64,000 bases of DNA from Octopus vulgaris (lineage: Eukaryota): positions 64,108,001-64,172,000 of the forward strand of contig OX597830.1 in NCBI GenBank assembly GCA_951406725.2, written 5' to 3'. Under the pieces are notes generated by a model, which had not been told where the DNA came from, made no database searches, and saw nothing but the letters and a program-made list of their open reading frames with translations. Shown here piece after piece: positions 9,458-18,716 of this stretch (position 1 is the stretch's first letter; each line of letters begins with the position of its first letter). Position numbers and translations under genes: made by a program.

Positions 9458-10844
9458 TTAATGTTGGCGAAACCGGTTGATCTCTTTTTCTATTAGAATA
9501 TCGTTTATAGGCTTCATCCAAATCGTGAAATGCCTCAAGAGATGCGAAGATTTGACAATTTCCATTCCGTGGATGAGGTGGGCCTTTTTGGTAACATTAC
9601 CAAATACTTTTGCTACAAAATGTAGATGATTGACAGTATAGGTTCTTCTGGGTAAAGCCAGTCGAACGTATTCAAAAGGGTGAGTGTGTTTCGACCCGTC
9701 TGGAGATTCACCAAACATTATATTACCGATTTCTCCGCATCGAATTCCACCTTCAATATATACGGCACAAGTAAGAGACCATGCAGGATATTTATCGAAT
9801 TCTAGATGCGGAAACGCTTCATTTGCCTTCACATAAACTGCGTGTGCACCGACCGGTTTAAAGACCGGAATGTTATTGTCCTCCAAGAAATCAGCCAACA
9901 ACTTTGCTTGATAAATTCTTGACCGAAGGTAATTTTCGTTCATGGCTTCAGAAATTCCTACAGTGCATGCAGCAAGATTTGCCCCAGTTATTCCACCAAA
10001 TGTTGAATAACCACTTTTGTATTCGACTACATCAAAGATTTCTTCGGCCCATTTATCGTCGTTGAAAGCCAAAAATCCACCTTCGTTGCTTATACCATCC
10101 TTCTTAAGAGACATAGTTGCTCCATCGAAATGAGAAAACATTTCATGTGCAATATCTATGATGGTGTGCTTTGAATATTTCTCGTCTAAGGTCTTGATAA
10201 AATAAGCATTTTCAACGAAACGACACGCATCCATGAAAACCGGGATATTATTTGTTCTACATAACTTCGTTATTACTTCTATATTTTCCATACTTACTGG
10301 AGCTCCAGCTACAACATTATTGGTGCAGGTAATTATTACAAGATGAATCCTCGATCCAAATTTATCTAGCGATTCCCTGAATTTTTCCACATCGATATCT
10401 CCCATAAACTTAGAAGAGGGGGTTGCTAAGTCTATCCCCATTGCACCAGATGATTCGACGTGTGCACGTGTTGTATCAAACAATGAATTGCTCAGTACAA
10501 CGCTGTTTTTATTCAGTAACAGTTTTGCTACCAATCCTTCTGCCCCTCTGCCTTGATGAACAGGGAATACATGTTTGAATTGCGTAATATGTCTGATGGT
10601 GCGTACAAACTGTACGACGTATTCCGAGTTAATGGTTGAATGGCCAGCGCTTATCATGGCGGACCACTGAGCTGCGCTTTGACTCCCAGTGCCAGAATCT
10701 GTCAGCAGATCAATGAATATATCATCTGATTTCAAAAGGAATGGATTGTAATGGGCTTTCTTCAGGCAATTCACGCGGTCTTCTCTTGAGATCAGCTTGG
10801 TGGGATAAAAAACCTTGATTTTGTAAGGTTCCATAGCGTGGAGA
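9458..10844 (-). CDS. Tryptophanase/TPL-like PLP lyase, paralogue A, main coding exon (keeps PLP Lys, lacks trans-acting Tyr)
   Basis: Intact 458-aa ORF with EPYKIK, YNPFLL, IDLLTDSGT, HQGRGAE, FDTT, DACRFVENA, MSLKKDG, GIRCGEIG, VRLALPRRTYT and LRHFT motifs. Polypyrimidine tract plus CAG acceptor immediately upstream of 10844. Confidence 0.95.
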
Positions 10845-10906
10845 CTGGCAAAGAGAAAGAAAAAAAAATGGAAATTAAGTTTAAAAAACTGTGTACAAGC
10901 TTGTCA

Positions 10907-12510
10907 TGTGTGTGCGTGTGTGTGTGTGTTTGTGTGTTTGTGTGTTTGTGTGTGTGTGTGTTTGTGTGTGTGTGTGTGTGTGTGTGTGTGTGTGTGTGTG
11001 TGTGTGTGTGTGTGTGTGTGTGTGTGTGTGTGTGTGTGTGTGAGTGTGTTTGTGTGTGTGTGTGCGTGTGTTTGTGTGTGTGTGTGTTGTGTGTTTGTGT
11101 GTGTGTGTTTGTGTGTGTGTTTGTGTGTTTGTGTGTGTGTGTTTGTGTGTTTGTGTGTGTGTGTGTGTGTGTGTGTGTGTGTGTGTGTGTGTGTGTGTGT
11201 GTGTGTGTGTGTTTGTGTGTGTGTGTGTGTGTGTGTGTGTGTGTGTGTGTGTGTGTGTGTGTGTGTGTGTGTTTGTGTGTTTGTGTGTGTGTGTGTGTTT
11301 GTGTGTGTGTGTGTGTGTTTGTGTGTGTGTGTGTGTGTGTGTGTGTGTGTGTGTGTGTGTGTGTGTGTGTGTGTGTTTTTGTGTGTGTGTTTGTGTGTGT
11401 GTGTGTGTGTGTGTGTGTGTGTGTGTGTGTGTGTGTGTTTGTGTGTGTGTGTTTTTGTGTGTGTGTGTGTGTGTGTGTGTGTGTGTTTGTGTGTGTGTGT
11501 GTGTGTGTGTGTGTTTGTGTGTTTGTGTGTGTTTGTGCGTGTGTTTGTGTGTGTGTGTGTTTGTGTGTGTGTGTGTGTGTGTGTGTGTGTGTGTGTGTGT
11601 GTGTTTGTGTGTGTGTGTGTTGTGTGTGTGTGTGTGTGTGTGTGTGTTTGTGTGTGTGTGTTTGCGTGTTTGTGTGTGTGTGTGTGTGTGTGTGTGTGTG
11701 TTTGTGTGTTTATGTGTGTGTGTATGTGTTTGTGTGTGTGTGTTTTTGTGTGTGTGTGTGTGTGTGTGTGTGTGTGTTGTGTGTGTGTGTTTGTGTGTGT
11801 GTGTTTGTGTGTTTGTGTGTGTTTGTGTGTTTGTGTGTGTGTTTGTGTGTGTTTGTGTGTTTGTGTGTTTGTGTGTGTGTTTGTGTTTGTGTTTGTGTGT
11901 TTGTGTGTGTGTGTGTGTGTGTGTGTGTTTGTGTGTTTGTGTGTGTGTGTGTGTGTTTGTGTGTGTGTATTTGTGTGTGTGTGTGTGTTTGTGTGTGTAT
12001 GTGTGTGTGCATGTGTTTGTGTGTGTGTGTCTGTGTGTTTGTGTGAGTGTGTGTGTGTTTGTGTGTGTGTGTGTTTGTGTGTGTGTGTTTGTGTGTTTGT
12101 GTTTGTGTGTGTTTGTGTGTGTGTTTGTGTGTTTGTGTGTGTGTTTGTGTGTGTGTGTGTGTGTGTGTGTGTGTGTGTGTGTGTGTGTGTGTGTGTTTGA
12201 GTGTGTGTGTGTGTTTGTGTGAGTGTGTTTGTGTGTGTGTGTTTGCGTGTTTGTGTGTGTGTGTGTGTGTGTGTGTGTGTGTGTGTTTGTGTGTGTTTGT
12301 GTGTGTGTGAGTGTGTTTGTGTGTGTGTGTGTGTTTGTGTGTGTGTGTGTGTTTGTGTGTGTGTGCGTTTTTGTGTGTGTGTGTGTTTGTGTGTGTGTGT
12401 GTGTGTGTGTGTGTGTGTGTGTGTGTTTGCGTGTTTGTGTGTTGTGTGTGTGTGTGTGTGTGTGTGTGTGTGTGTGTGTGTGTGTGTGTGTGTGTGTGTG
12501 TGTGTGTGTG
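10907..12510 (+). repeat. ~1.6 kb imperfect (GT)n microsatellite in the predicted intron of gene A
   Basis: Directly visible; the long CV/HT ORFs here are artefacts of it. Confidence 0.98.
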
Positions 12511-16898: not shown

Positions 16899-16904
16899 TT
16901 TATT
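16899..16904 (-). terminator. Candidate polyadenylation signal of paralogue B
   Basis: AATAAA on the minus strand ~390 nt after the B stop codon and ~210 nt before the candidate TATA box of A. Confidence 0.4.
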
Positions 16905-17290
16905 TCCTTGTTTGTTATTATAATATACTAACACGATGTTTTAGTTGAAAAGATTTTGTAAAAGCAATCAATATTTAAGAATGTAATGGCCAAATATTTT
17001 TTGTTAGAAGGAGATAGAGCTCGATCAATAGGCAGTTATATATATATATATATATATATATATATATATATATATATATATATATATATATATATATGTA
17101 TGTATATATATATATATATATATATATCCTAGATTAGCCTTAATTGAACTGGGACTAACTGCATATTATCTGTTCTTTTTAAGGCATTCGAGACTACATT
17201 ATCGGATTATCTCAGCCATTTTAAGAGGAGTGTAATTCAAATGAGAGGTTGGTATTCCTAAGCAGGCGTTGAGTGGTTAATACTGGTCTG

Positions 17291-18716
17291 CTACATGTTT
17301 TTAAAGAAGTGGATGTGATCAGAATTTTGCACTGGTAGAAGATGGATATCTCCATAGTCCATCGAACTGAGTGGTACCATCGATGTTTTAATATGTTTTA
17401 CTTTACATTCAGGGGAATCAACAATTTTCATTCCAGAAATAATTTTATGTGAAATCAGCTGCGAGAAAACGTAGGCGACATAAAGAAAATGACATGTCGT
17501 ATATATAAAACGAGGCACCTCAAGTTTGATCAGTTCTCGGCCTTTTAGTGGATGGTCATCGGGTAAGCTTTGGGTTGCATGTGTAATTTGACCAAACTCT
17601 GCGCATCGAATACCCCCGATTATATATGCAGCACAAGCTAAAGACCAGGCAGGATAAAACTTTCGACTAAGTTGTGGAAAAGCTTTTTCGGCGTCAATGA
17701 AGATGGTGTTACAACCAATAGGTTCTACAATTGGGACTCCAAATTCCTTCAAGGATTTTTTGAAATATGCTAATTGTTTTTCTCTATAATCTTGGAGCTG
17801 TTCATCCAATGCACTGCGCATGCCTTCTGCTACTATTTCCATGTCTCGGCCAGCCATTCCACCGTAAGTGATGAAACCTGCTTTAAAGGTTATAACATTG
17901 CCCAGTTCTCGAGTCATTTCATCGTCTCGAAGGCAAATGACGCTCCCTATCTCACTTCTTCCGTCTCTTTTAGCAGAAAGGATGCAGCCATCGAAATATG
18001 AGAACATTTCCTGAGATATTTCAACCAATGATTTATTAAAATAGTTTTCTTCGTACATCTTTGTGCGCCAGCAATTCTCACCATACATGCTGCTTTCGAT
18101 ATAGACGGGAATCGAATGTTCTCGACAGAGATCGGAAACTTCTTTCATGTTGGACATACTAACCGGCTGGCCACCAAGATTCTTTGATGGCACATTCATG
18201 ATAACGAAAGAAATTTTTTCTTTATCATTTTGTTTCAGGATATTTCTGAATGCTTTAATATCTAAATTTCCTCCGAAATTCTCATCTGACCAATCCACCA
18301 TAGAAATCGGTTCCGCCTTAATATGCTTTAGATGATTTTCAAGAGTGTAAGTAAACGTATTTCCAATGACTCTGTCTCCAGCTTTTGCGAGATAAGAAGA
18401 GACTATCTCTTCGCTAGTACGTTTAGAAAAAACAGGTAATATATTTTCAAAACCAGAAATGTAGGTGGCGTTGTCCTTCAAAATTTCGAAACTACTTGAT
18501 CCAGCATAGCTTTCATCACCCATCCATAATCTTGAATTTTGTTTAAGACTCAAACCATTAGTACCAGCGTCTGTGAGGAAATCAATCATAACATCTTCAG
18601 GATGTATTTTAAAGACGTTGTAATCAGTTTTCTCGAGGGCAGTCAATCTGTCGTTACGAGTATTGATCTTTATGTTTTCTACGATATGTATTTTAAATGG
18701 TTCGATAAAATCAGAA
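17291..18716 (-). CDS. Tryptophanase/TPL-like paralogue B, main coding exon (PLP Lys replaced by Arg, keeps GDESY Tyr)
   Basis: The frame extends upstream of the track's TTG start as SDFIEPFKIHIVENIKINTRNDRLTALEK. Motifs DFLTDAGT, GDESYAGS, GGQPVS, SAKRDG, TYGGMAGRD, GIRCAEFG. Acceptor TTTTCGTTTCCTTTCAG ends at 18717; there is no in-frame ATG before the upstream stop, so splicing is required. Confidence 0.92.

Follow-up and report, generated by a model that had tools for sequence, protein, structure and literature searches.

We analysed a window of 64,000 nucleotides (nt) from Octopus vulgaris, which covers positions 64,108,001 to 64,172,000 of contig OX597830.1 in assembly GCA_951406725.2 (contig handle C17; the genome searched comprises 2.8 Gb in 227 contigs). 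Positions below are those of the window. On its minus strand lie two long open frames of the tryptophanase family, here called A and B. Frame A spans 10834-9458, with 458 amino acids counted from an internal ATG, frame B spans 18716-17291, and the two amino-acid sequences are 35% identical. The initial annotation had described them as two tandem intact open reading frames (ORFs). Both frames are indeed intact; RefSeq isoforms, a single first exon and the transcript contigs point to exons of one gene rather than to a tandem of two. We consider it highly probable that this one gene encodes two complementary subunits of the tryptophanase family, each probably functional only when paired with the other.

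One first exon and two terminal exons

The gene is read on the minus strand. A TATA-box-like element, TATAAAAG, at 24050-24057 stands about 30-40 nt upstream of exon 1 and, judged by its sequence, would likely be the shared promoter. The shared exon 1 (23982-24016) consists of a short 5′ untranslated region (UTR) and 17 coding nt, and its true 5′ end possibly lies a few nt further upstream. The ATG at 23998 begins the reading MDFSD plus two bases of a Leu codon, and the donor GTAAGT follows at 23981 in phase 2. The pattern of an exon starting MDFSDL has a single match within the window.

Two acceptors, both in phase 2, lie downstream. The one at 18716 (...TTTCAG) opens the proximal terminal exon B (17291-18716) behind an intron of 5,265 nt, and the one at 10844 (...TGCCAG) opens the distal terminal exon A (9458-10844), 13,137 nt of intron away from exon 1; both exons are delimited by contigs and sequence. 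Exon 1 with B gives a 480-amino-acid protein with no internal stop, identical at 477 of 480 residues to O. sinensis isoform X1 (P0253). Exon 1 with A gives a protein of 467 amino acids, also uninterrupted, of which 461 are identical to O. sinensis isoform X2 (P0241). In RefSeq, isoform X1 corresponds to B and isoform X2 to A, both for O. bimaculoides, under consecutive accessions, and for O. sinensis, and all four RefSeq A/B proteins from these two Octopus species start with MDFSDL.

A candidate polyadenylation signal of isoform B, AATAAA at 16899-16904, is read from the sequence only. The probable 3′ UTR of isoform A (8054-9457) is covered by several separate contigs, none of which spans the whole, and it has interspersed repeats inside; AATAAA occurs in it at 8937, 8818, 8218, 8200 and 8157. 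Microsatellites separate A and B. One of them, a (TG)n array of 1.6 kb, accounts for the long ORFs at 10838-12890, which were discarded as genes.

Contigs were compared in 4 of the 24 listed runs, which come from 4 studies and carry 2 organism labels. No run is on record as RNA, and their RNA nature is deduced from the splice junction. In all four runs the B contig reaches 18716 and then continues as exon 1, the matching overhang being 29 nt in three runs (X1, X2 and X12) and 35 nt in run X9. Exon 1 is thus joined to B. The A contig ends at the acceptor 10844 with 29 unaligned letters in the same three runs, and in X9 it ends at 10812, short of the junction. Overhangs of 29 nt on both A and B in the same runs are explained by one exon that branches, in a 31-mer de Bruijn graph, to two exons with the same first base. 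The junction of exon 1 with A is something we infer, if strongly, because the A overhang is known by its length and not by its letters. Both forms are found in the same four RNA-type runs. The contig depths (A/B 70/73, 506/524, 62/215 and 411/908) were left unused, since depths cannot rank genes.

A and B could also be two separate genes with promoters of their own, whether or not their proteins pair. There is an in-frame ATG in A at 10834, the A overhang is known by its length, as said, and the GenBank model of B (P0254) uses another first exon, 21053-20985 (minus strand, end approximate), inside the exon 1-B intron. However, the junction of this exon with B is seen in none of the four runs, all four B contigs being joined to exon 1. 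The A contigs, as do those of B, stop at an AG acceptor followed by exactly 29 letters in three of the four runs, the RefSeq A proteins of two species begin in the same way as B, and a second exon-1-like sequence between B and A was searched for in the window and not found. Hence, we regard two separate genes as highly improbable. We suggest that a single promoter and a single short first exon serve A and B, used alternatively as last exons; for A this is very likely. The locus is mis-annotated in the models of this assembly: that of A in the collection (P0240) is a fragment of 258 amino acids starting from Met201 (10234-9458, minus strand), and that of B has a first exon without support from the four runs.

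Complementary active sites of A and B

Both proteins fall within the family by profile. PF01212 matches A with E=1e-53 and B with E=1e-39, and NCBIfam PRK13238 (cut-off 285 bits) scores 494 bits for A and 410 bits for B, above the cut-off in both cases. The scores are below the cut-offs of the equivalog models for tryptophanase (TnaA) and tyrosine phenol-lyase (TPL), namely TIGR02617 (825.8), NF053783 (750) and TIGR02618 (720.7), with 344, 397 and 391 bits for A and 274, 339 and 341 bits for B; these are bacterial models and thus a weak criterion for animal proteins. Among solved structures A and B match 22 PDB sequences each, with TPL and tryptophanase foremost. The nearest named proteins are the tryptophanases of O. 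bimaculoides (A 92%, B 95% identical), and exon B is identical to the tail of the O. vulgaris-labelled protein P0254.

Residues are given in TPL numbering, taken from the alignment to PDB 9j3u. Eleven of them, namely S51, D68, E69, Y71, Q98, G99, D214, R217, K257, N262 and R404, show no variation across the intact reference proteins (229 of 229). Window A has lost D68, E69 and Y71 and kept the other eight, and window B has kept D68, E69 and Y71 and lost the other eight. In A the lysine that forms the Schiff base with pyridoxal 5′-phosphate (PLP), Lys257, is encoded by AAG at 10100-10102. The degenerate motif of A at 10634-10642 reads ACC, Thr, at the Tyr71 site (10636-10634) and CAT, His, at the Glu69 site (10642-10640). 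In B the codon TAT at 18506-18508 encodes Tyr71, the general acid that, by a contact in the model described below, is predicted to reach the site of A, and AGA at 17966-17968 encodes the Arg replacing the PLP lysine. All these codons lie on the minus strand and read as the initial annotation had stated or, at the Glu69 site, implied.

Beyond Y71T and E69H, A is also without G73, and its PLP and substrate pocket is kept. B carries the substitutions K257R, D214E, R217M, N262E and R404K and keeps the YGGMAGRD loop. The earlier description had A keeping the residues which a subunit contributes to its own site (cis) and losing those which it contributes to its neighbour's (trans), with B as the mirror image. 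The eleven invariant positions fit this description; the image is imperfect in that B still carries T49, R100, S254 and K256. The Y291F change of A is not fixed among A-types, Tyr being found in P0251, P0004 and P0005. Lys256 was considered as a substitute for Lys257 in B and rejected as unlikely: the deep B-type P0125 also has Arg at the K257 site and has lost K256 as well.

At three further positions A carries Asp124, Ile381 and His448 like the reference set, which is the tryptophanase type, and not the Thr, Arg and Phe of the TPL type. The roles of T124, R381 and F448 in TPL are described in PMC10170061 (in excerpt). The homotetrameric tryptophanases (EC 4.1.99.1; P. vulgaris 1ax4, E. coli 2c44) belong to the same family as A and B, have both residue sets on each chain and break L-Trp down to indole, pyruvate and ammonia. 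Here, the PLP lysine together with D214, R217, N262 and R404 is found in A and not in B, and Tyr71 together with Glu69 is found in B and not in A. Glu69 is a cation ligand. Tyr74 of the E. coli enzyme forms a bond with the PLP of the adjacent subunit, and the Y74F enzyme has an activity of 0.2 versus 45.7 U/mg (both from PMC2770544, in excerpt).

The initial annotation had asked whether orthologous pairs retain the split, and all deeper relatives found do. D214, R217, K257, N262 and R404 are kept in 10 of 10 scored A-type rows, and D68, E69 and Y71 are absent from all nine that cover the N-terminal region. The five B-type rows all keep E69, Y71 and Y291 and all lack D214, R217, K257, N262 and R404. 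The most distant relatives are P0005 (A-type) and P0125 (B-type), 57% and 48% identical to the window proteins. Intact animal enzymes from a chiton (P0008), a bivalve (P0020), Nematostella (P0023) and Montipora (P0086) carry both residue sets on one chain. Of 118 near-invariant positions the intact enzymes keep 111-113, A keeps 93 and B 75; the 6 A-types tested share the loss of 15, six of which belong to the 68-76 loop, and the 3 B-types tested share that of 32. No third, intact copy was detected in the genome with A or the intact chiton enzyme as query, only the best candidates being scored.

We note several features of the wider set. Argonauta hians has two A-type models, P0007 and P0251, with near locus numbers (001214700, partial, and 001214900), which points to another round of duplication of A or to a copy created by the assembly. 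The deep A-types P0006, P0247 and P0248 are changed around position 381, with Tyr or Phe there, as well as in the C-terminal motif, and their specificity is possibly altered. Among 101 other representative rows in which both sites are covered, 22 are without Tyr71 or Lys257, several by a change of Tyr to Phe; P0267, P0283, P0290, P0292, P0309, P0310 and P0346 are among the 22, some of which may be further split pairs or lyases turned to another use.

In a quick tree of 78 rows, with supports from the Shimodaira-Hasegawa-like approximate likelihood ratio test (SH-aLRT) only, A-types and B-types each form one clade (100) within a group that includes the chiton and bivalve enzymes (98) and stands next to cnidarians (97). 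Such a placement agrees with the duplication of a gene that animals inherited, and not with its recent acquisition from bacteria. Contamination by bacterial DNA, or a recent transfer, was rejected in view of the spliced exons, the microsatellite surroundings, the large contig and the mollusc/cnidarian grouping. The deep A-types and the deep B-type have 10 residues ahead of the conserved Glu-Pro, and the start of the deep B-type differs in sequence.

The same split is found in prokaryotes within single polypeptides. A search with B and a second search (120 listed of 149 matches) gave 121 proteins of 800-960 amino acids, and 120 of these, one being dropped, carry two lyase domains. Among the matches listed, 114 of 120 have an N-half with Tyr71 and without Lys257 and a C-half with the reverse. 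Another 4 keep both residues in both halves, some possibly by misalignment, and 2 are intermediate. Over the same listed matches the N-half keeps D68, E69, Y71, G73 and Y291 in 120 of 120 and K257 in 6, and the C-half keeps K257 in 120 of 120 and Y71 in 4. TPL-type T124, R381 and F448 are present in 114 of 120 C-halves, and in the tree, where the N-halves of the fusions are long branches, the C-halves fall outside the animal clade. The C-halves being TPL-type and outside that clade, the partition appears to have arisen twice, with separate origins. Hence, these double-length TPL-like proteins share the cis/trans split of A and B but hold it in one polypeptide. The family (about 850-930 amino acids; P0257-P0264, P0270, P0272, P0301 and P0421-P0533) comes mostly from uncultured prokaryotes, with members named from Deltaproteobacteria, Gemmatimonadota, Elusimicrobiota, Schekmanbacteria and Thermomonas.

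The predicted A:B pair and its alternatives

Modelling of A, B and PLP, proposed by the initial annotation, gave an interface of the predicted kind. The score is 0.79 in three modelling runs against 0.00 for the best of 3 controls, with a partner predicted local distance difference test (pLDDT) value of 90 and contact agreement of at least 95%; likeness to solved dimers may inflate it. Of solved pairs 51 of 78 reach the score mark, and of mismatched pairs 2 of 108; for eukaryotes the counts are 39 of 65 and 2 of 126. The modelled contacts A Gly48-B Tyr70, A Asn250-B Glu68 and A His93-B Gly286 place the loops kept by B opposite the pocket kept by A. An A:B catalytic dimer is thus predicted by the model to rebuild one complete site.

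We suggest the following course of events. In an ancestral molluscan tryptophanase gene a tandem duplication would have doubled the large coding exon, and the two copies would then have decayed in a complementary way inside heteromers. Exon 1 is spliced to B and very likely also to A, which would yield two subunits with complementary losses in the active site. PLP and the substrate would be bound by A, with the general-acid tyrosine coming from B. The most likely functional unit is an A:B dimer, which would contain one complete site, made of the A pocket and the Asp-Glu-x-Tyr and YGGxAGRD loops of B, and one dead site. The working assembly is probably an A2B2 tetramer. The substrate is presumably L-tryptophan and not tyrosine, since A has Asp124, Ile381 and His448 in place of the TPL-type residues.

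Alternatively, A may be a homomeric PLP enzyme re-purposed for a reaction that does not need the trans tyrosine, such as the elimination of good leaving groups or racemisation, with B as a non-catalytic scaffold, regulator or ligand binder. The whole cis pocket of A is kept, position 381 varies in deep A-types (I, L, Y, F), which could mean a drifting specificity, and E. coli Y74F retains a trace activity with S-(o-nitrophenyl)-L-cysteine (SOPC) of 0.2 U/mg (PMC2770544, in excerpt). However, re-purposing of A leaves unexplained why B retains exactly D68, E69, Y71, G73 and Y291 down to 48% identity. Moreover, A has lost the cation ligand Glu69 as well, and the model fits the loops of B into the site of A. 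Each cephalopod subunit is also reported to show no activity on Trp by itself. We consider a re-purposed A unlikely.

Several observations weigh against an obligate pair made by one gene. The exon 1-A join depends on the overhang length and the RefSeq isoforms, and the co-occurrence of A and B holds per sample, not per cell. The node joining A, B and the chiton enzyme is open (82), and the sisterhood of A and B is not supported by the tree. E286 is lost in both A and B. Counted over the 118 positions, what A and B have lost is not significantly exclusive, with an overlap of 3 versus 4.1 expected (P=0.38); the overlap not being below chance, reciprocity is specific to active-site positions and does not extend to the whole protein. 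The A:B score may reflect the memory of solved TPL and tryptophanase dimers, and, covering the A:B pairing and its controls, it does not bear on a preference for the heteromer. Finally, the coding differences between the window and run X9, which comes from a related organism, comprise 9 amino-acid-changing and 1 silent. This tally fails to show purifying selection (P=0.47 versus neutrality, P=0.001 versus omega 0.2, from crude site fractions and small numbers).

The prevalence of amino-acid changes among these shallow differences, as well as losses that are not significantly exclusive, would suit two decaying or relaxed duplicates without joint function, the mirror pattern then being an accident of drift. 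Against such decay, both frames are intact and are found in spliced or junction-ending contigs in all four runs, and B and A remain 95% and 92% identical to their O. bimaculoides counterparts. Of 2,969 sites in mostly coding stretches 10 differ from X9, against 24 of 1,040 sites in two contigs of the 3′ flank (P=6e-8), so that coding sequence is about 7 times less divergent, the flank figures being possibly inflated by repeats. The recurrence of the split in a separate prokaryotic lineage also speaks against drift, and we hold decay to be the least probable of the alternatives. The obligate heteromer with its cis/trans division, as initially proposed, draws support from conservation, from the co-occurrence of both forms in the runs, from the predicted interface and from the failure of the genome search to detect an intact copy.

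The coding differences to X9 span 9475-10727 and 17347-18141, with four in the C-terminal region. Those at 10018 and 10024 correspond to A residues 271-273, in the predicted interface beside the degenerate trans loop of A. RNA editing could underlie two of them, 17347 and 9891, which read as A-to-G changes in sense orientation.

Elsewhere in the window, a reverse transcriptase fragment is found on the plus strand at 34205-34879 (RVT_1, E=2e-8), probably from a decayed retroelement. A 581-amino-acid ORF at 36511-38256, also on the plus strand, has no Pfam or NCBIfam match at 0.001; by eye we take it to resemble a Penelope-like retroelement.

Relation to known enzymes and meaning

Two cephalopod tryptophan indole-lyases (TIL), TIL-alpha and TIL-beta, are reported to carry disruptive substitutions in each and to be inactive alone. 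Co-expressed TIL-alpha and TIL-beta are said to form a weakly active heterotetramer. The two reportedly stem from a duplication before the octopus/squid split. A and B are likewise two paralogues with complementary disruptive substitutions, and we take them to be almost certainly the same pair. The core idea of two half-enzymes working as a pair is therefore probably already published for cephalopods. A 2023 article that by its title treats cephalopod tryptophan indole-lyases (Yuasa HJ, J Mol Evol 2023;91:912, PMID 38007709) is cited in PMC12980246 (in excerpt), and PMC8537960, in the part available, merely notes tnaA in octopus. No description of the shared first exon or of the cephalopod pair was found in the literature searched, which excluded the text of the 2023 cephalopod paper. 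What may be new is the coding of both subunits by one gene, as well as the like division of residues in the double-length prokaryotic proteins. That an obligate heteromer made by one gene, through duplication and alternative use of its last exon, is at once real, functional and undescribed in print has, in our judgement, slightly less than an even chance.

A:B differs from the homotetrameric tryptophanases in that its dimer would have one site and not two. A comparable case is the hybrid dimer of H463F and Y74F subunits of E. coli tryptophanase, in which activity is reportedly restored from two defective subunits by the same cis/trans complementation (Phillips et al. 2002, PMID 11900544). That hybrid is a laboratory construct with single substitutions, not an evolved pair.

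The locus illustrates a failure of annotation, the model of A being fragmentary and that of B having been given a first exon that the runs do not support. One promoter with alternative last exons would offer a genetic explanation for co-expression, and the choice of splicing or polyadenylation could set the amount of active enzyme. An enzyme that needs two individually dead paralogues would be a clean case of complexity arising after duplication without a new function. If the reading is true, prokaryotes arrived independently at this cis/trans partition, in the form of a fused tandem protein, and the fold was trapped twice by the same route. The intact mollusc enzymes as outgroup, together with the independent parallel in prokaryotes, make it possible to test in which order the cis and trans losses occurred.

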